Part shown: in pieces, positions 5,942 to 19,969 of the stretch
Numbering within the stretch: position 1 is the first letter of the stretch
Layout: each line of letters starts with the position of its first letter
Origin: a virus
Taxonomy: Duplodnaviria > Heunggongvirae > Uroviricota > Caudoviricetes
Reading direction: 5' to 3' (one strand)
IMG/VR virus record: IMGVR_UViG_2675903289_000008
Length of the DNA: 19,969 nt
Position numbers and translations under genes: made by a program
The notes under the pieces: generated by a model
Databases searched by the model: none
Seen by the model: only the letters and a program-made list of their open reading frames with translations
What the model was told of the DNA's origin: nothing

Positions 5942-6026
5942 CGGTCAGTGGCGGGGGTCGAACCCGCATACATGATCCACCCGGAGGCAGGCACCGACTT
6001 TACCAGTTAAGCGTACACTGACCGCC
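5942..6026 (-). other. tRNA-like structured element or tRNA remnant (minus strand); also a 9-bp inverted repeat on the + strand
   Basis: Minus strand reads GTCAGTG-TA-...CTGG...-GCGGG-TTCGACC-CCCGC-CACTGAC: 7-bp acceptor-like pairing, U8A9-like TA, D-loop GG, canonical T-arm. No anticodon stem could be folded and there is no CCA. Confidence 0.3.
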
Positions 6027-6062: not shown

Positions 6063-6542
6063 ATGTCATCCATTGATGCCGCTGTCGTTGTTGACGTTAC
6101 GCGTCTCCAGCGGGTGTTTGCCCGGCTTCAGTTTGTGGGCGGCGGAAAAGACCTGGCCCGCAGTGTGGCGGAGAGTCTNNNNNNNNNNNNNNNNTCAGAA
6201 ATGGCGTTTGAACAGGAAAAAGAGCCGGACGGCGAACGCTGGCATGACTGGTCAGATCCTTACCGCAAGTGGCGTACCCGTAAGGGATACACGCCCGGCA
6301 AAATCCTGACACTGAACGGCGATCTGGCCCGCCGCCTGACCACGGATTATGGCGATACCTGGGCGCTGATTGGATCAAATGAACCTTATGCGGCCATTCA
6401 TCAGTGGGGTGGCCTGCCTGGTATGCCACCGGGACCGGCGGCCATTGGCGCACGTCCGTATATGGGCTTTGATCAGGTGGCAGAACAGGAGATCATGGAC
6501 GAAATCAGAAAACGCTTTAAAAAGGCCACAGAAACGCCGTAA
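6063..6542 (+). CDS. virion morphogenesis protein (Mu G-like)
   Basis: 159-aa ORF with GGAGG Shine-Dalgarno ahead of ATG 6063; sits between MuF and protease/scaffold as in Mu; reads in frame across the 16-nt N-run 6179-6194. Confidence 0.7.
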   Translation: MSSIDAAVVVDVTRLQRVFARLQFVGGGKDLARSVAESXXXXXXSEMAFEQEKEPDGERWHDWSDPYRKWRTRKGYTPGKILTLNGDLARRLTTDYGDTWALIGSNEPYAAIHQWGGLPGMPPGPAAIGARPYMGFDQVAEQEIMDEIRKRFKKATETP

Positions 6543-6719: not shown

Positions 6720-7922
6720 ATGAAGACGAAAAACACGCCCAAACTTGCTTATGCCATTCTGAATGCCATCAGCCTGTCCGCAGACGGGGACGGTGACTGG
6801 TGTCAGATCATGCCAGCCGGTCGGGTAAAGGCCCGTGACGGTCGCCCGGAAAAACCGGCGGAAGGCTGGCTGATTAACCATGCGGCCGTTGAGCGCATGG
6901 TATCCCGGGTTGTGGCGCTCAATCAGCCGGTAAAAATTGACTACAACCACCAGACCCTGATTAAGGGGCATCCGGCACCGGCTGCCGGTTTTGTCATGGC
7001 CTCACCGGAAAACTTCCGCTTCAGTGAAGAGCGGGGTTTTGAAGTGCGTCCGGACTGGAACCCTCCGGCCATTGAACACCTGCGCAATAACGAATTTCCC
7101 TGGTTTTCCCCGGTGATTGGTTATGACGAAATCACCGGTGAACCTGTTGAGCTTCGGATGCTGGCTATTACCGGTGACCCCGGTCTGACTGGCATGAATC
7201 CTGTCGCCGCACTGTCGGCGGATGACCTTTATAACGCCTTAAACCCTCCTTTAAAGGACACCTCCATGAATGAGCAATTACGCCAGTTGCTGACGGCGCT
7301 CGGTCTGACCGTGGCCGACGGTGACGAATTTACACCGGAACTGGGCACGGCGGCGCTGTCTGCCCTTACCGGGATCAAAACCCGTGCGGATGCGCACGAC
7401 ACCCTGAAAACGCAGGTTGCCAGCCTGTCGGCAGAGCTGGAAACCGCAAAAGGCACACCAACTGGCGGCACTATTGATCTGACGAAATACGTGCCCGTTG
7501 AGACGTATAACGNNNNNNNNNNNNNNNNNNNNNNNNNNNNNNNNNNNNNNNNNNNNNNNNNNNNNNNNNNNNNNNNNNNNNNNNNNNNNNNNNNNNNNNN
7601 NNNNNNNNNNNNNNNNNNNNNNNNNNNNNNNNNNNNNNNNNNNNNNNNNNNNNNNNNNNNNNNNNNNNNNNNNNNNNNNNNNNNNNNNNNNNNNNNNNNN
7701 NNNNNNNNNNNNNNNNNNNNNNNNNNNNNNNNNNNNNNNNNNNNNNNNNNNNNNNNNNNNNNNNNNNNNNNNNNNNNNNNNNNNNNNNNNNNNNNNNNNN
7801 NNNNNNNNNNNNNNNNNNNNNNNNNNNNNNNNNNNNNNNNGTCGGCTGAAGATATCGCCGCCGCCCATCTGCTGGGTAAAACCGAAGCCGAGTTCCTGAA
7901 AATGAAAGAGGAAATGCAATAA
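6720..7922 (+). CDS. head maturation protease/scaffold (Mu I-like)
   Basis: 400-aa ORF directly upstream of the major head gene (TAATG overlap); N-terminal protease-like region, A/L/T-rich helical C-terminal half; contains N-run 7513-7840. Confidence 0.8.
   Translation: MKTKNTPKLAYAILNAISLSADGDGDWCQIMPAGRVKARDGRPEKPAEGWLINHAAVERMVSRVVALNQPVKIDYNHQTLIKGHPAPAAGFVMASPENFRFSEERGFEVRPDWNPPAIEHLRNNEFPWFSPVIGYDEITGEPVELRMLAITGDPGLTGMNPVAALSADDLYNALNPPLKDTSMNEQLRQLLTALGLTVADGDEFTPELGTAALSALTGIKTRADAHDTLKTQVASLSAELETAKGTPTGGTIDLTKYVPVETYNXXXXXXXXXXXXXXXXXXXXXXXXXXXXXXXXXXXXXXXXXXXXXXXXXXXXXXXXXXXXXXXXXXXXXXXXXXXXXXXXXXXXXXXXXXXXXXXXXXXXXXXXXXXXXXSAEDIAAAHLLGKTEAEFLKMKEEMQ
7266..7922 (+). CDS. candidate nested scaffold protein (Mu Z-like) from an in-frame internal start
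   Basis: In-frame ATG at 7266 preceded by AAGGA; downstream sequence (MNEQLRQLLTALGL...) is helical and scaffold-like; Mu makes Z from inside I in the same frame. Confidence 0.35.
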   Translation: MNEQLRQLLTALGLTVADGDEFTPELGTAALSALTGIKTRADAHDTLKTQVASLSAELETAKGTPTGGTIDLTKYVPVETYNXXXXXXXXXXXXXXXXXXXXXXXXXXXXXXXXXXXXXXXXXXXXXXXXXXXXXXXXXXXXXXXXXXXXXXXXXXXXXXXXXXXXXXXXXXXXXXXXXXXXXXXXXXXXXXSAEDIAAAHLLGKTEAEFLKMKEEMQ

Positions 7923-10245: not shown

Positions 10246-10683
10246 ATGACAACCATTTTTATCAAACCCNNNNNNNNNNNNNNNNNNNNNNNNNNNNNNN
10301 NNNNNNNNNNNNNNNNNNNNNNNNNNNNNNNNNNNNNNNNNNNNNNNNNNNNNNNNNNNNNNNNNNNNNNNNNNNNNNNNNNNNNNNNNNNNNNNNNNNN
10401 NNNNNNNNNNNNNNNNNNNNNNNNNNNNNNNNNNNNNNNNNNNNNNNNNNNNNNNNNNNNNNNNNNNNNNNNNNNNNNNNNNNNNNNNNNNNNNNNNNNN
10501 NNNNNNNNNNNNNNNNNNNNNNNNNNNNNNNNNNNNNNNNNNNNNNNNNNNNNNNNNNNNNNNNNNNNNNNNNNNNNNNNNNNNNNNNNNNNNNNNNNNN
10601 NNNNNNNNNNNNNNNNNNNNNNNNNNNNNNNNNNNNNNNNNNNNNNNNNNNNNNNNNNNNNNNNNNNNNNNNNNNNNNNNNNA
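10246..10683 (+). CDS. unresolved: start of an ORF running into an N-run (small Mu gp38-like protein and/or sheath N-terminus)
   Basis: ATG 10246 with GAGGA Shine-Dalgarno, 8 codons visible (MTTIFIKP) before the N-run 10270-10682. Confidence 0.3.
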
Positions 10684-12057
10684 ATGAAAGACACCACCAT
10701 TCAGGGGCGCGGTCAGCTTGATGTACCAGTACGTATTACCCGAGCTTCACAAGCAAGAGAACTCTGGGGGCGAGGTTCCATGATTGCACTGATGGTAGAG
10801 GAATTTATCGCCATTAACCCTGACACAGAGTTATATGCCATTGCACAGGGGGCTGGAACAGGTCAGTCCAGGGCATGCGTGATGAATATCATTGGAACAG
10901 CATTGGCAGACGGGGTGTTAAGTGTTTACATCGGCGGTCGCCGTTACCTCCTGCCCGTCAGTAAGGGGAAAAAAGGTAAAGAGCTTGTGGAAGAGCTGGC
11001 TAAGGTCATTAACGCTGACACTGATGCGCCATTCACTGCTATCGCAGCTGAAGTCAGTGGTGATAATGCTGAAGGACTTAAAGGGAGCATGGGGGTTAAC
11101 GCCCGCTTTATCGGTGAATGCTCAGCTCATGATTTACGGGTGAACTATTATGACGGTGAAACTACACCGGCCGGTCTTACGCTGGAGCTCGTCGCGCCAA
11201 CACAGAAGGCAACAAACCCCGATATCACCCGTAGCGTCTCAGGGATGGGGAATCGTCAGTACAACTACATCGTCATGCCCTATAAGGATGCGGCAAATCT
11301 CAAAATTCTGGCGGATGAACTGCTGAAACGCTGGGGACCGGTAAAAATGTCGGACGGTATGGTCTGGATGGCGCATACCGGCACCTTCGGTACGGCAACC
11401 AGTTTTGGTGAATCCCGTAATGACTTCCTGTTTACCTGCACTTCTATTCCTAAAGCACCAGAGCCGGATTATGTCTGGGCGGCCTCCATTTGTGCGGTCT
11501 GTGCGCCCTCCCTGTCAACGGATCCGGCCCGACCATTACAGACACTGGCGCTGCCTGCCCGTATGGCACCTGAAGCACCGGCTCGTCTGACGCGGGAAGA
11601 GCGAAACAGCCTGCTTTATACCGGCATGTCCACGGTGACCGTTGCGGCCGCTGATGTGGTGCAGATTGAACGTCAGGTGACGATGTACCGTCAGAATGCA
11701 TACGGCGAAAGCGATCCCAGCTATCTGGATGTAGAAACCATCTACACCCTGTCATATCTGCGTTATTCCCTGCGCACCTTTATCACGCAGCGTTTCCCGC
11801 GCCACAAACTGGCCGATAACGGTACTCCCGTCCGGCCCGGTCAGAATATCGTGACGCCGGAGATTATGACGCTCCAGCTGATTGCACTGGGGGAAGAATG
11901 GGTGGAACTCGGGCTGGTCGAAAATCTGGACACCTTTAAAAAGAATCTGCTCGTGGAGCGCAACACAAAAGACCGTAACCGTCTGGATGTGATGTGTACA
12001 CCGGATCTGGTTAACCAGTTCCGCTTCATGGCCGCGCAGATCCGTTTCATTTTGTGA
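10684..12057 (+). CDS. contractile tail sheath protein (Mu L-like); true start may lie in the upstream N-run
   Basis: At least 457 visible codons of a sheath-like protein, followed by the tube gene; ATG 10684 is the first visible start but the frame is open through the mask. Confidence 0.8.
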   Translation: MKDTTIQGRGQLDVPVRITRASQARELWGRGSMIALMVEEFIAINPDTELYAIAQGAGTGQSRACVMNIIGTALADGVLSVYIGGRRYLLPVSKGKKGKELVEELAKVINADTDAPFTAIAAEVSGDNAEGLKGSMGVNARFIGECSAHDLRVNYYDGETTPAGLTLELVAPTQKATNPDITRSVSGMGNRQYNYIVMPYKDAANLKILADELLKRWGPVKMSDGMVWMAHTGTFGTATSFGESRNDFLFTCTSIPKAPEPDYVWAASICAVCAPSLSTDPARPLQTLALPARMAPEAPARLTREERNSLLYTGMSTVTVAAADVVQIERQVTMYRQNAYGESDPSYLDVETIYTLSYLRYSLRTFITQRFPRHKLADNGTPVRPGQNIVTPEIMTLQLIALGEEWVELGLVENLDTFKKNLLVERNTKDRNRLDVMCTPDLVNQFRFMAAQIRFIL

Positions 12058-12065
12058 GGTAAGGC

Positions 12066-12459
12066 ATGAGCGGAAAACAGCATCAGGGCACGGCCACCAT
12101 CCGTGTGAACGGACAGGAGTACGCCACCCTTGAGGGAGCCACGTTCTCCCCGTCCGGCTTTGAGCGTGAAGTGGTGAAAGGCGCGAAAGTCTATGGCTAT
12201 CGTGAGAAACCCCGTGAGGCGACGCTGGACTGTAAATTTCCGGCTGGCGGAGAAGGTTCACCGGCTGNNNNNNNNNNNNNNNNNNNCACCGGCTGCCGAT
12301 GAAATCAACACCTGGACTGCGGTCACGATTGAGTTCGTGGCCGATACCGGTGAAGTCCATATGATGACGAAGGCCTGGAGCAGTGAACCGGCCTCGCTTG
12401 ACGGTGGCGGTGATATCTCCGCGAAGTTCGCCAGCGCCACCAGTACCCGTGTCCAGTAA
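12066..12459 (+). CDS. tail tube protein (Mu M-like), reading frame broken at 12268-12286
   Basis: N-terminal 67 codons in frame 0 and C-terminal about 57 codons in frame 1 are both protein-like; removing 28 nt (N-run plus the second caccggctg copy) restores one ORF of about 121 aa. Confidence 0.65.
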
Positions 12460-12473
12460 TCAGGAAAAATGCA

Positions 12474-12953
12474 ATGACCACACGTAAGAAAAAAACGGCG
12501 GTTTCTGACGAGGCCGTGATGGAGGCTATCCGGGATGTACTTGAAGACGGCGATCCCCGCACCGCCGGGCTGGCTGAACAGCTGGCGAACGGCTATGTGG
12601 ATCTGCTCGACGGTCTGCCGTTCGGGGAATCCCGTGAATACCGCGTCACCTTCCGCGAACTGACGGCGAAAGACAGCATTGACGCGGAAACCGAGGCCGA
12701 GCGTCTTATGGAAACCCGAAATGGCGGCCCGGTTCTGATAGCCTCGCCGGCACTGCGCGGCATTGCACTGCTGCGCCGTCAGATTGCCGCTGTTGGCCAG
12801 ATTGAGGGGCCATTGTCTCCGCGTCAGATCGGACAGCTCAGCGAGCGCGATCTCTCCCGTCTGATGGCGGCGGTAAGCCTGCTTGATTCCGCGATGGCAG
12901 GAAAGCTGGTCGCTGAACGGGGGCGACCAGATGCAGTGCCGGGATCAGATTGA
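12474..12953 (+). CDS. tail assembly chaperone (short form)
   Basis: 159-aa acidic ORF between tube and tape measure, the conserved position of frameshift-type chaperone pairs; AGGA Shine-Dalgarno upstream. Confidence 0.65.
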   Translation: MTTRKKKTAVSDEAVMEAIRDVLEDGDPRTAGLAEQLANGYVDLLDGLPFGESREYRVTFRELTAKDSIDAETEAERLMETRNGGPVLIASPALRGIALLRRQIAAVGQIEGPLSPRQIGQLSERDLSRLMAAVSLLDSAMAGKLVAERGRPDAVPGSD

Positions 12954-13077
12954 AGAAGCCGCAATTGTGCTGGGGATGGTGACAAAAAGCGGCCCGGAGT
13001 GGGCGCTTAACCTCCCCTTATCGCAGCTTTACCGGCACTGCCGACAGACCGAAAAAATTCTCAGAACGAAGCAGTAA
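12883..13077 (+). CDS. frameshift extension ORF of the tail assembly chaperone (long form)
   Basis: Frame 1 is open from 12883 to the stop at 13077, overlaps the frame-0 chaperone by 71 nt, has no start codon or Shine-Dalgarno of its own, and ends 3 nt before the tape-measure ATG. Confidence 0.5.
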   Translation: MIPRWQESWSLNGGDQMQCRDQIEEAAIVLGMVTKSGPEWALNLPLSQLYRHCRQTEKILRTKQ

Positions 13078-13080
13078 CCC

Positions 13081-15353
13081 ATGGCAAAAAACCTGAAAGC
13101 CTCCCTGATTGTCGATTTACTCGGCAATATTTCCGCCAAATCCCGCCAGTGGTCACAGGAGCTGGGGGCATTCTCCCGTTCCGGCAGGACGGGGCTGGGT
13201 GGTCTTGGAAATGCAGCACGCCGGGCCGGTCAGGAAACAGAGCTTGTTGGCTCCCGTATGCAGCGAACGCTTGCCGGTGTTCGTGGCAGTATCCGCACGG
13301 TAACGTCAGATTTTGACCGCCTGCAGGGCAGCATTACCGGCACCATCGGGCGGATAAGCAACNNNNNCCTTTACGGGATGCTGGCGGGAGGGGCTGCGGT
13401 CTACGGTTTTAATAAAGCCTTTATCCGCCCGGCCGCAGAGATGGAGAACTATATTCTGCGTCTCAACGCCANNNNNNNNNNNNNNNNNNNNNNNNNNNNN
13501 NNNNNNNNNNNNNNNNNNNNNNNNNNNNNNNNNNNNNNNNNNNNNNNNNNNNNNNNNNNNNNNNNNNNNNNNNNNNNNNNNNNNNNNNNNNNNNNNNNNN
13601 NNNNNNNNNNNNNNNNNNNNNNNNNNNNNNNNNNNNNNNNNNNNNNNNNNNNNNNNNNNNNNNNNNNNNNNNNNNNNNNNNNNNNNNNNNNNNNNNNNNN
13701 NNNNNNNNNNNNNNNNNNNNNNNNNNNNNNNNNNNNNNNNNNNNNNNNNNNNNNNNNNNNNNNNNNNNNNNNNNNNNNNNNNNNNNNNNNNNNNNNNNNN
13801 NNNNNNNNNNNNNNNNNNNNNNNNNNNNNNNNNNNNNNNNNNNNNNNNNNNNNNNNNNNNNNNNNNNNNNNNNNNNNNNNNNNNNNNNNNNNNNNNNNNN
13901 NNNNNNNNNNNNNNNNNNNNNNNNNNNNNNNNNNNNNNNNNNNNNNNNNNNNNNNNNNNNNNNNNNNNNNNNNNNNNNNNNNNNNNNNNNNNNNNNNNNN
14001 NNNNNNNNNNNNNNNNNNNNNNNNNNNNNNNNNNNNNNNNNNNNNNNNNNNNNNNNNNNNNNNNNNNNNNNNNNNNNNNNNNNNNNNNNNNNNNNNNNNN
14101 NNNNNNNNNNNNNNNNNNNNNNNNNNNNNNNNNNNNNNNNNNNNNNNNNNNNNNNNNNNNNNNNNNNNNNNNNNNNNNNNNNNNNNNNNNNNNNNNNNNN
14201 NNNNNNNNNNNNNNNTGGCCACACAGACGGCCTCAGCACTGAATCAGGGATTTGAGTATGCCAGAGATGCTGCGACCGGCTTTTACCGGGCCATTCAGAA
14301 AGTCAGGGAAACGCTTCAGGCACTGCGCGACGCCGGTTATGGCGATGCGCTGGATCGTATTGGTCAGGGTGCGCAGACCGCCGCAAAGTACCTGATGTAT
14401 ATGTATCTCGCCTCCCGTGCGCTGAAGGTGCTCAGGTTTGCAGGGACGGGGGCATTACGTCTCGGCGCAACCCCCTTACGCTATGGCATGGCGATGACCT
14501 CCGTGCTGACGTCGCCCTTCCGCAAACCGCAGACCACTGTACCGGGAACGCAGCCCGGACGCGCTGGCCGGTTCCTGAATTTCCTTACCGGGGTAAATCC
14601 GGCTGCCGTTCAGCCCGTGCTGGTCACCAACTGGCCTGCGGGTGGCCTGGCCTCAGGTGGCGGGGATGTGGTGGTCAGCGGTGACGGCAAAACCGTGCGC
14701 GGCCGTAAAAAACGCGGCCCCGGACGTGGACGGGGTGTCACGACCGTCGTGACTGCCGGTGAGCAACTGGCGGAGAGTGCCGGTAAACAGGGCTTCTTCG
14801 GTCGTATGATGAGCCGTGCCGGTGGTCTGCTAACGGCGGCCGGAAACCGCATGGGGCTGGGGCGTTTTGCCGGGCTGTTCCGTGGTGCCGGTCGGCTGGG
14901 TGGTGGTGCCCTGTGGGCCGGTGCCATGGCGGCTCCTGTACTGCTGGACAGCAGCGCCAGTGCAGCCGATAAAGCCGGTGCCGTGGGTTCTCTTGCCGGA
15001 AGTATCGCCGGTGNNNNNNNNNNNNNNNNNNNNNNNNNNNNNNNNNNNNNNNNNNNNNNNNNNNNNNNNNNNNNNNNGCGCGGGGGGCGGCTGCCGGTCC
15101 GGTCGGGGTTGCCATTGGTTCCACGGTGGGCAGCTATCTCGGTGATTATCTGGGGGGCTGGCTGACGCAGGCCTGGCAGAAACTGCGTGGCAGCAGTGAC
15201 GAAAACGGCGGACAGGCCACCGCGAAAACCGCCGCACGGGTGGAGCTTGTGGCCCCTGAAGGCTGGCGGGCGCGCAGTATTGATGTGGATGATACCGCAC
15301 AGCATGGCCTGGATGTGAACGTCTGGAACGGAGGGAACTATGGCCTCTACTGA
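13081..15353 (+). CDS. tail tape measure protein; frame discontinuity inside N-run 15014-15077
   Basis: Long Gly/Ala-rich ORF after the chaperones. After the mask the protein-like continuation (ARGAAAGPVGVAIGSTVGSYLGDYLGGWLTQAW...) is in frame 0 and ends at 15353, overlapping the next start; the ORF track's frame-1 end at 15165 is an artefact. Confidence 0.75.
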
Positions 15354-16584: not shown

Positions 16585-16881
16585 NNNNNNNNNNNNNNNN
16601 NNNNNNNNNNNNNNNNNNNNNNNNNNNNNNNNNNNNNNNNNNNNNNNNNNNNNNNNNNNNNNNNNNNNNNNNNNNNNNNNNNNNNNNNNNNNNNNNNNNN
16701 NNNNNNNNNNNNNNNNNNNNNNNNNNNNNNNNNNNNNNNNNNNNNNNNNNNNNNNNNNNNNNNNNNNNNNNNNNNNNNNNNNNNNNNNNNNNNNNNNNNN
16801 NNNNNNNNNNNNNNNNNNNNNNNNNNNNNNNNNNNNNNNNNNNNNNNNNNNNNNNNNNNNNNNNNNNNNNNNNNNNNNNNN

Positions 16882-17836
16882 GGTCATCAGTGGCTGGCTG
16901 GATCAGGTCAGTCNNNNNNNNNNNNNNNNNNNNNNNNNNNNNNNNNNNNNNNNNNNNNNNNNNNNNNNNNNNNNNNNNNNNNNNNNNNNNNNNNNNNNNN
17001 NNNNNNNNNNNNNNNNNNNNNNNNNNNNNNNNNNNNNNNNNNNNNNNNNNNNNNNNNNNNNNNNNNNNNNNNNNNNNNNNNNNNNNNNNNNNNNNNNNNN
17101 NNNNNNNNNNNNNNNNNNNNNNNNNNNNNNNNNNNNNNNNNNNNNNNNNNNNNNNNNNNNNNNNNNNNNNNNNNNNNNNNNNNNNNNNNNNNGCTGACCC
17201 GTGCTGCCCGGCATCGCGGGGTGCTGGTGACCAGTAATGCTGACGGCGATCTGGTGTTCACCCAGGCAGGAAGCCAGCAGACGGACAGACTGGTGCTGGG
17301 AGATAACCTGCTTGATGCCGATTACAACACGGACTGGCGAGGACGATACAGCGAATACCGTGTCCGGGGACACGGGCGCGGTGGTGGCAAACGGGGAGAC
17401 AGCGAATCCGCCGCCCGTCTGGCAGCACCTGTGGGCGTCATCAGTGATGAGCAGATCGGCCGCTACCGGCCGAAAATCATCCTCGCCGATCAACAGACAG
17501 ACATCACCGGTGCACGGCAGCGTGCCCTGCGTGAAATGCGCCGTGCGATTGCCCGTTCAGAACGGTTTTCTGCCACCGTGCGTGGCTGGTTCCGGGATGA
17601 TGGCCGGTTATGGGATGTCAATCTGCTGACCGGTGTTTCAGCCCTGCGTTTCGGTATAGAACAGACTGAACTGCTGGTCTGTCAGGTGGAGTTTTTACTT
17701 GATGAGNNNNNNNNNNNNCTTGATGAGCATAACGGGGAAGTCACCCGGCTGGTACTGGCACCGCGTGACGGCTTTATCGTTCCGGCAGAGCCGGACAGTA
17801 AGGGCCGGGGTGGTTCCGGTGACGATGTTGATGCCT
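16882..17836 (+). CDS. baseplate hub protein (Mu P/gp44-like, P2 gpD-like); both ends masked
   Basis: Visible segment 17193-17836 resembles the C-terminal part of late-control-D-type tail proteins; contains a 21-nt in-frame direct repeat around N-run 17707-17718. Confidence 0.55.
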
Positions 17837-18231
17837 NNNNNNNNNNNNNNNNNNNNNNNNNNNNNNNNNNNNNNNNNNNNNNNNNNNNNNNNNNNNNNNN
17901 NNNNNNNNNNNNNNNNNNNNNNNNNNNNNNNNNNNNNNNNNNNNNNNNNNNNNNNNNNNNNNNNNNNNNNNNNNNNNNNNNNNNNNNNNNNNNNNNNNNN
18001 NNNNNNNNNNNNNNNNNNNNNNNNNNNNNNNNNNNNNNNNNNNNNNNNNNNNNNNNNNNNNNNNNNNNNNNNNNNNNNNNNNNNNNNNNNNNNNNNNNNN
18101 NNNNNNNNNNNNNNNNNNNNNNNNNNNNNNNNNNNNNNNNNNNNNNNNNNNNNNNNNNNNNNNNNNNNNNNNNNNNNNNNNNNNNNNNNNNNNNNNNNNN
18201 NNNNNNNNNNNNNNNNNNNNNNNNNNNNNNN

Positions 18232-18986: not shown

Positions 18987-19969
18987 TGCCTTATCAGCCT
19001 TTACCGCTGGCACAGTTAATCACGCAGACACAGCAGGATATCAGCCAGCGCCTGCCCGGCTCGCAGCCGGGTGTGAATGAAACCACCCTGAATGCCATTG
19101 CTTACGCTCAGGCAGGGTTATCTGCTCAGGAGCATGAGCATCTGGCCTGGATTGCGCGTCAGATCATCCCGACCGAAGCCGATGAAGCCGAACTGCTGAA
19201 ACACTGTGCATTCTGGGGCGTCATGCGTAAGCCTGCCTCTCGGGGGGACGGGCCGGTTCAGCTGATGCTGACCACGGATGCGGGGATCAAGGAAGGTGTG
19301 CTTCTCCAGCGAAGTGATGGCGTGGTTTACCGTATCACCACCTCCCTGACCGGTAAGGCCGGTACGCTGAATGTCAGTGTGGAAGCCGAAAGTGCCGGTC
19401 GTGCGGGGAATGCCCCGGCAGGGACAAAACTGACATTTATCACACCGCAGGCGGGGATCAACCAGACGGCCACGGTGACCGGAACGGGGATCACCGGTGG
19501 TGCGGATGTGGAAACCGTGCCGGAGCTGCTTTCCCGTCTGGTTTTCCGGGTGCAGAATCCACCGTCCGGCGGCACGCAGTATGATTTTGAACGCTGGGCG
19601 CGTGAAGTGCCGGGCGTGACGCGGGCATGGTGCCGCCCGGAATGGCCGCAGGCGGGCAGCGTGGGGGTAACGTTTGTTCAGGATAATAACCCGGACATTT
19701 TCCCCGGTGACGGTGATGTTCAGCGGGTGGCGGATTATNNNNNNNNNNNNNNNNNNNNNNNNNNNNNNNNNNNNNNNNNNNNNNNNNNNNNNNNNNNNNN
19801 NNNNNNNNNNNNNNNNNNNNNNNNNNNNNNNNNNNNNNNNNNNNNNNNNNNNNNNNNNNNNNNNNNNNNNNNNNNNNNNNNNNNNNNNNNNNNNNNNNNN
19901 NNNNNNNNNNNNNNNNNNNNNNNNNNNNNNNNNNNNNNNNNNNNNNNNNNNNTCTGGTTCTGCCGTCGT
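18986..19969 (+). CDS. baseplate J-like protein (Mu gp47-like; P2 gpJ / T4 gp6-like), 3'-partial
   Basis: ATG 18986 overlaps the preceding stop (TAATG) after AAGGGGGAG; frame open to the window end, so absent from the ORF track; sequence (…YDFERWAREVPGVTRAW…) fits baseplate J proteins. Confidence 0.8.
   Translation, partial: MPYQPLPLAQLITQTQQDISQRLPGSQPGVNETTLNAIAYAQAGLSAQEHEHLAWIARQIIPTEADEAELLKHCAFWGVMRKPASRGDGPVQLMLTTDAGIKEGVLLQRSDGVVYRITTSLTGKAGTLNVSVEAESAGRAGNAPAGTKLTFITPQAGINQTATVTGTGITGGADVETVPELLSRLVFRVQNPPSGGTQYDFERWAREVPGVTRAWCRPEWPQAGSVGVTFVQDNNPDIFPGDGDVQRVADYXXXXXXXXXXXXXXXXXXXXXXXXXXXXXXXXXXXXXXXXXXXXXXXXXXXXXXXXXXXXXXXXXXXXXXXXWFCRR

Follow-up and report, generated by a model that had tools for sequence, protein, structure and literature searches.

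A predicted Mu-type −2 frameshift site in the tail assembly chaperone gene of a common Escherichia coli prophage lineage

The DNA analysed (19,969 nucleotides; this whole stretch is referred to as the window) comes from a Mu-like Escherichia coli prophage and spans its late region, with the head and tail genes. Matches to Pfam and PHROG profiles reproduce the gene order of phage Mu, namely the gpT major head protein, gp37, sheath, tube, gp41, tape measure protein and the baseplate proteins gpN and gpP. The window is a draft scaffold with twelve runs of N (6179–6194, 7513–7840, 10270–10682, 12268–12286, 13363–13367, 13472–14215, 15014–15077, 16585–16881, 16914–17192, 17707–17718, 17837–18231 and 19739–19952), in which the gap lengths are unlike those of the true sequence; positions 12474–13081 are free of gaps. 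The features of the tail segment are the following:

12066–12459, plus strand: tail tube gene, 5′ of the chaperone gene (Pfam Tail_tube matches both halves).
12474–12953, plus strand: tail assembly chaperone, homologue of Mu gp41, 159 aa, frame 0 (Pfam PF23746 Gp41_Mu; PHROG 508; BLASTP against Mu gp41).
12919–12926, plus strand: putative slip site GG GGG CGA, with P-site GGG at 12921–12923 and A-site CGA at 12924–12926 (sequence and phase as at the Mu site).
12922–13077, plus strand: extension in the +1/−2 frame up to TAA at 13075–13077 (homology to the Mu extension; PHROG 12783; third-position bias).
13081–15165, plus strand: tape measure protein gene, broken by N runs (PHROG 973).

The chaperone gene runs from ATG at 12474 to TGA at 12951–12953. 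Its product was matched by Pfam PF23746 (Gp41_Mu) with E = 1.2e-32 and a score of 112.7 bits (cut-off 27), and by PHROG 508 (tail assembly chaperone) with E = 4e-44 over 12474–12953, in agreement with an earlier reading made from the letters of the window (the sequence-only reading), which had proposed a 159-residue tail chaperone in frame 0. The identical protein is common across E. coli and Shigella. An E-value of 6e-71 to PHROG 973 (tail length tape measure protein) identified the tape measure gene, which is interrupted by N runs at 13363–13367, 13472–14215 and 15014–15077. A tape measure protein is also annotated in a prophage of E. coli AF39, which is 99.5% identical over the 801 bases around the slip site and is annotated with the same order of sheath, tube, chaperone, tape measure, gpN and gpP genes. 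More widely, 228 of 5426 complete E. coli genomes contain matches of at least 80% identity. The RefSeq annotation of the AF39 prophage carries no feature in the 127 bases between the annotated chaperone and tape measure genes. A promoter and terminator scan of 12000–13400 returned nothing, which fits a single operon.

Some apparent features of the window are artefacts of the N runs. The tail tube gene appears as two ORFs (12066–12302 and 12193–12459); the intact relative has it as one gene of 121 aa, and only the assembly gap at 12268–12286, the edges of which are duplicated, splits it here. A 603-aa ‘sheath’, extended at its N-terminus and joined to the upstream DUF2635 gene, and a 974-aa gpN–gpP ‘fusion’ have the same origin, and the tube, sheath, DUF2635, gpN and gpP genes are all separate and intact in the 99.5% identical AF39 prophage. 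RefSeq further annotates a ‘tRNA-OTHER’ in that prophage, between the genes for the minor head protein and virion morphogenesis, at a position that corresponds to approximately 5943–6022 on the minus strand here. ARAGORN detected no tRNA in the whole window, and an Rfam search of the whole window at gathering thresholds, including this minus-strand segment, gave no match.

A second ORF overlaps the chaperone gene in frame 1, which is +1/−2 relative to the chaperone frame, and is open from stop to stop between 12877 and 13077. Its TAA at 13075–13077 ends 4 nt before the tape measure ATG at 13081, in line with the layout given in the sequence-only reading; the overlap of 71 nt given there holds if counted from TTG 12883, and the open frame itself overlaps gp41 by 77 nt. 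Within the overlap, the 0-frame codons at 12915–12926 read GAA CGG GGG CGA, so that five consecutive G residues occupy 12919–12923 and a tRNA on GGG 12921–12923 would be able to re-pair two nucleotides back on GGG 12919–12921, with coordinates and codon phase as originally noted. A −1 shift was considered as an alternative and rejected: the −1 frame offers no more than 21 open codons (12917–12982) and closes 99 nt before the tape measure gene, too early to reach it.

Runs of five or more G occur 22 times in the window, and the octamer GGGGGCGA occurs twice against 1.09 copies expected from shuffled sequences. By these counts the G-run is not beyond chance when taken alone, and its significance lies in the comparison with relatives. 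The second copy of GGGGGCGA is at 10766–10773, within the gene for the tail sheath, and has the codon phase of the slip site (TGG GGG CGA). A −2 shift there would lead into a +1 frame that stops after four codons (G-E-V-P-stop), and if the octamer alone were slippery, a small fraction of truncated sheath protein would arise from this position. This copy may be a chance occurrence, about one octamer being expected per window.

The closest characterized counterpart is the gp41/FS-gp41 pair of Mu (Mu_41/Mu_56; UniProt P0DJY4), and both chaperone and extension are homologous to those of this prophage. BLASTP gave 50% identity between the chaperone and Mu gp41 (E = 4e-35), and the extension is 52% identical to that of Mu (E = 1e-21). 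When the conceptual fusion protein was used as a tblastn query, Mu, SfMu, D108 and Mu-like phages of Yersinia were each matched in two pieces, corresponding to two frames. In both Mu and this prophage, the chaperone gene lies between the tube and tape measure genes, the same +1/−2 frame relation holds and the extension comprises 51 codons; the one in Mu ends 15 nt before the tape measure gene. Mu reads CAA GAA CGG GGG CGA GTG (the site at 1861–1867 of L001, equivalent to 23960–23966 of AF083977), and AACGGGGGCGA is identical and in the same phase in the two. They differ in the N-terminus of the chaperone, which is longer here (159 aa vs 144 aa in Mu), in the 0-frame tail 3′ of the slip site (10 codons here vs 8 in Mu) and in the base 3′ of CGA (C here vs G in Mu). 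The fusion product is annotated in the Mu record, whereas it is unannotated for this prophage.

The Mu −2 frameshift yielding FS-gp41 was reportedly described by Xu, Hendrix and Duda in 2004. The GenBank note to the joined CDS Mu_56 reads ‘verified -2 translational frameshift in PMID 15469818’, and Mu is listed as a case of −2 frameshifting in the review by Atkins (2016; PMC5009743). Lin et al. (2012; PMC3458567) and Firth et al. (2012; PMC3498833) also treat it as such, the latter as the only natural programmed −2 case then known, with an efficiency of approximately 2.2%. The sequence-only reading had put forward a tail-chaperone frameshift into the +1/−2 frame at the G-run and had pointed to a −2 shift proposed for Mu; the first is supported here, and the record and these reviews confirm the second. 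In chaperone type, gene position, overlapping ORF, slip sequence and coding extension, the present locus agrees with the Mu gp41/FS-gp41 family. On this comparative evidence, we regard the slip region as a genuine, if predicted, programmed frameshift site, orthologous to the known −2 site of Mu and belonging to a common E. coli prophage lineage. What is new is an unannotated member of the Mu −2 frameshift family; the kind itself was already known.

The survey of relatives drew on the locus in seven additional phage genomes and in 80 contigs of IMG/VR. It comprises 57 distinct slip-site regions; besides the IMG/VR contigs, their sources are Mu-like phages and prophages with Escherichia, Yersinia, Pasteurella, Klebsiella, Vibrio, Shewanella and Alteromonadaceae as hosts. 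The gp41 proteins, which extend down to 35% identity to this chaperone, form 21, 13 and 7 clusters at 80%, 60% and 50% identity, respectively, with one spurious match left out. An in-phase 0-frame GGG CGA is invariant (57/57 distinct relatives), and the +1 frame remains open for 48–52 codons in all of them, ending at or just over the start of the tape measure gene. The codon 5′ of GGG CGA is CGG in 48 of the 57, AGG in three, AAG in four, CAG in one and TCG in one, so that GG before GGG is kept in 51 (about 90%), and only four G precede CGA in the six distinct relatives with AAG, CAG or TCG. What stays constant across the family is the core G GGG CGA. In the own genes of this DNA, GGG accounts for 27% of glycine codons and CGA for 6.6% of arginine codons, and the invariance therefore operates at the nucleotide level and is not explained by a conserved R-G-R alone. 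The chance of GGG CGA is 0.018 per lineage; over the seven lineages that fall below 50% identity it is about 6e-13, a rough estimate in which common descent is disregarded.

The loci with four G are L030, L032, L033 and L035 (AAG GGG CGA), L037/L038 (CAG GGG CGA) and L070/L071 (TCG GGG CGA), and their extension ORFs are intact, at 50–52 codons.

The extension, which is matched by PHROG 12783 with E = 1.4e-37, comprises 51 codons counted from GGC 12922, or 50 from GAC 12925 if slippage is in tandem. Substitutions were counted in the +1 frame, downstream of the 0-frame stop, against relatives with 84–91% chaperone identity, with these results:

L002: third position 8, first 0, second 2; synonymous codon changes 8, non-synonymous 2.
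L019: third position 8, first 3, second 0; synonymous codon changes 7, non-synonymous 2.
L028: third position 11, first 1, second 2; synonymous codon changes 11, non-synonymous 3.

The bias towards third positions indicates that the extension is under protein-coding constraint. No NCBIfam family matched the fused protein, and the fusion product of this prophage, in all junction versions, was absent from a collection of 15 billion proteins on exact-sequence look-up. The practical value of the finding lies here: the fusion ought to enter the annotation as the product of a −2 frameshift, following the present Mu entry.

By analogy with Mu, a minority −2 shift on GG GGG CGA very probably takes place in this prophage and leads to a fusion into the +1 frame. 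Most ribosomes would stop at 12951–12953 and release the 159-aa chaperone. A minority would shift with GGG 12921–12923 in the P site and the rare CGA 12924–12926 in the A site, moving two nucleotides back on GG GGG CGA and then reading on to TAA 13075–13077, to yield a fusion of about 201 aa that corresponds to Mu FS-gp41. The published Mu model has both tRNAs slipping, tRNA-Gly from GGG to GGG and tRNA-Arg (anticodon ICG; 3′GCI5′) from CGA to GGC, where its pairing would be better than in the −1 frame (tandem −2 slip on GG GGG CGA; Lin et al. 2012, PMC3458567). A 2025 preprint reports that, in a purified cell-free system, the Mu 10-mer alone produces a 14% shift to the +1 frame, with a reporter that does not distinguish −2 from +1 (bioRxiv 10.1101/2025.10.02.679949). 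We infer the occurrence of the shift in this prophage, its −2 rather than +1 direction, its efficiency and its role in assembly; the direction and the junction residue rest on the Mu experiment.

The possible routes differ at the junction. A −2 slip in the P site only would give …A-E-R-G-G-D-Q… (201 aa), a tandem −2 slip …A-E-R-G-R-D-Q… (201 aa) and a +1 slip …A-E-R-G-D-Q… (200 aa). The junction E-R-G-G-D-Q put forward in the sequence-only reading is accordingly that of the P-site-only −2 version, whereas the published tandem model predicts E-R-G-R-D-Q, with RGRDQMQCRDQIE as the expected junction peptide. For Mu itself, the databases disagree by exact-sequence look-up: GenBank UIW09302.1 has …QERG-G-EWL…, in which the glycine matches P-site-only slippage, and UniProt P0DJY4 has …QERG-R-EWL…, in which the arginine matches tandem slippage. 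The same look-up found the +1 junction version of Mu absent from public databases.

The +1 slip is the only serious rival. Slow decoding of CGA would leave the A site empty and allow the P-site tRNA-Gly to move from GGG to GGC, with GAC read next and a fusion one residue shorter, at 200 aa. Such a route would draw on a codon that is rare here and invariant in the relatives, and it would accommodate the six distinct relatives in which the two bases needed for −2 vary and the core is reduced to G GGG CGA; the 2025 reporter assay is compatible with either direction. Set against this, the move from GGG to GGC is a wobble mismatch for E. coli tRNA-Gly(CCC), and the GG before GGG, which a +1 slip does not need, is retained in 51 of the 57 distinct relatives. 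The Mu record and several reviews moreover state that −2 was verified for the identical sequence. We consider a +1 slip improbable, and the −2 shift remains the preferred reading.

A related question is what drives the shift across the family. Since the G-run is cut from five to four in six relatives, perfect −2 re-pairing in the P site is not universal. The driver could be the A-site CGA and its tRNA-Arg(ICG) next to a G-rich P site, in place of perfect re-pairing of tRNA-Gly on five G, a reading that draws on the invariant core G GGG CGA and from the intact extension in the AAG, CAG and TCG lineages, and that we hold to be doubtful. If it were true, some lineages may shift +1 or use a mismatched −2 slip, and the Mu junction residue (Gly or Arg) would be informative on the mechanism. 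Natural −2 frameshifts are rare, and the relatives gathered here, including the variants with four G, constitute a ready-made natural mutagenesis series for the mechanism.

Three explanations of the two-frame layout remain, namely independent initiation, transcriptional slippage and an indel artefact, and the comparison with relatives speaks against every one of them. An independent start at ATG 12931–12933, which is in the extension frame 7 nt after GGGGG and could use the G-run as a weak Shine–Dalgarno sequence, would give a separate 48-aa protein and no fusion, and D108 and some E. coli records indeed annotate a separate small ORF of 48–60 aa there. This ATG is, however, not conserved: it is replaced by CTG in Mu and by GCG in the 84%-identical relatives, and in many relatives none of ATG, GTG and TTG occurs within the first 20 extension codons. 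The absence of start signals noted in the sequence-only reading is upheld in this sense, namely that no start codon is conserved among the relatives, although ATG 12931 is present here. The +1 ORF is furthermore conserved from the slip site onward (G-[DE]-W/Q...), and the fusion is verified in Mu according to the Mu record. These points make separate initiation very unlikely.

Slippage of RNA polymerase on the five G, with two G added or one dropped, would provide a minority of in-frame mRNA and a product no different in length from that of the −2 (or +1) ribosomal shift, and the homopolymer it calls for is present. We give it very little credence: five G are fewer than the runs known for productive bacterial transcriptional slippage, only four G are found in some relatives, and the strict codon phase and the invariance of CGA would be left unexplained. 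Cases of transcriptional slippage are reviewed in PMC5009743.

Finally, the notion that a one-base indel, by mutation or sequencing error, broke a single longer chaperone gene might be entertained for a gapped draft assembly, and IMG/VR contig L062 has single-G deletions in two G-runs with the ORFs in one frame, but it is effectively refuted by the comparative data, with the two-frame layout and the octamer found in all other relatives, among them phages with complete genomes and 99.5% identical prophages in finished E. coli chromosomes. In L062 (approximately 1840–1925), the sole contig without the octamer, one G is missing from each of the two runs; the first deletion puts chaperone and extension into a common frame, which the second then disrupts. 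This exception is most likely a homopolymer sequencing error and not biology.

The general arrangement is shared with lambda gpG/gpGT and P2 E/E+E′, in which, as here, the tape measure gene closely follows the chaperone gene, which is overlapped by a second ORF (PMC5009743; Mu record note). In those systems a minority of ribosomes produces the extended protein, which sets a fixed protein ratio for tail assembly, and the role here is presumed to be the same. Both lambda products bind the tape measure protein, the extension recruits the tube subunit and the frameshift efficiency fixes their ratio (PMC5009743); by analogy, the chaperone and the fusion of this prophage would both bind the tape measure protein, the extension would recruit the tail tube subunit, and a low, fixed ratio of the two products would be needed for assembly. 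The mechanism is different, as lambda and P2 use a −1 shift on an X_XXY_YYZ heptamer, whereas G_GGG_CGA does not fit this pattern and the −1 frame closes after 21 codons, so that an extension of the lambda G/GT type is not found here. Lambda G has no detectable sequence similarity to this chaperone, and the only match, to Pfam Phage_TAC_7, falls below its cut-off. The arterivirus nsp2TF likewise arises from a natural −2 ribosomal frameshift (PMC5009743), but in a eukaryotic RNA virus, on another slip sequence and with a protein trans-activator, and is unrelated in sequence and function.

A stem-loop or pseudoknot 3′ of the slip site, as in the lambda G/GT type, is also not found here. The 70 nt 3′ of CGA fold no better than shuffled sequences in this DNA (z = −0.58) or in Mu (z = −0.42), the fold of 12900–13030 has z = −0.83, and the consensus fold of 15 enterobacterial relatives reaches −5 kcal/mol, with no supporting covariation (covariation term +0.2). 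No conserved stimulatory structure was thus found in the clade of this prophage and Mu, in keeping with the reported activity of the short Mu motif by itself.

In the single-sequence fold of this DNA, a 9-bp hairpin, CTGGTCGCT/GGCGACCAG, surrounds the slip site, with 12906–12914 pairing with 12922–12930. An equivalent stem is absent in the 84%-identical relatives and weak in Mu, as judged by eye from the aligned sequences. This candidate was dropped because it would be melted with a ribosome on the slip site, and it is probably incidental.

Single-sequence folds of 22 relatives were examined for downstream structure. Relatives of the Pasteurella-phage type (L003, L073, L076, L078, L080, L083, L084 and L085) have an 11-bp hairpin that begins about 6 nt 3′ of CGA, with compensatory changes at four pairs (CAA/TTG vs CAG/CTG). 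This hairpin, absent from the clade of this prophage and Mu, may be a clade-specific stimulator. Strong folds at the same spacing were also found in one Vibrio phage sequence (L006, z = −6.5) and in a Shewanella phage sequence (L007, z = −4.9).
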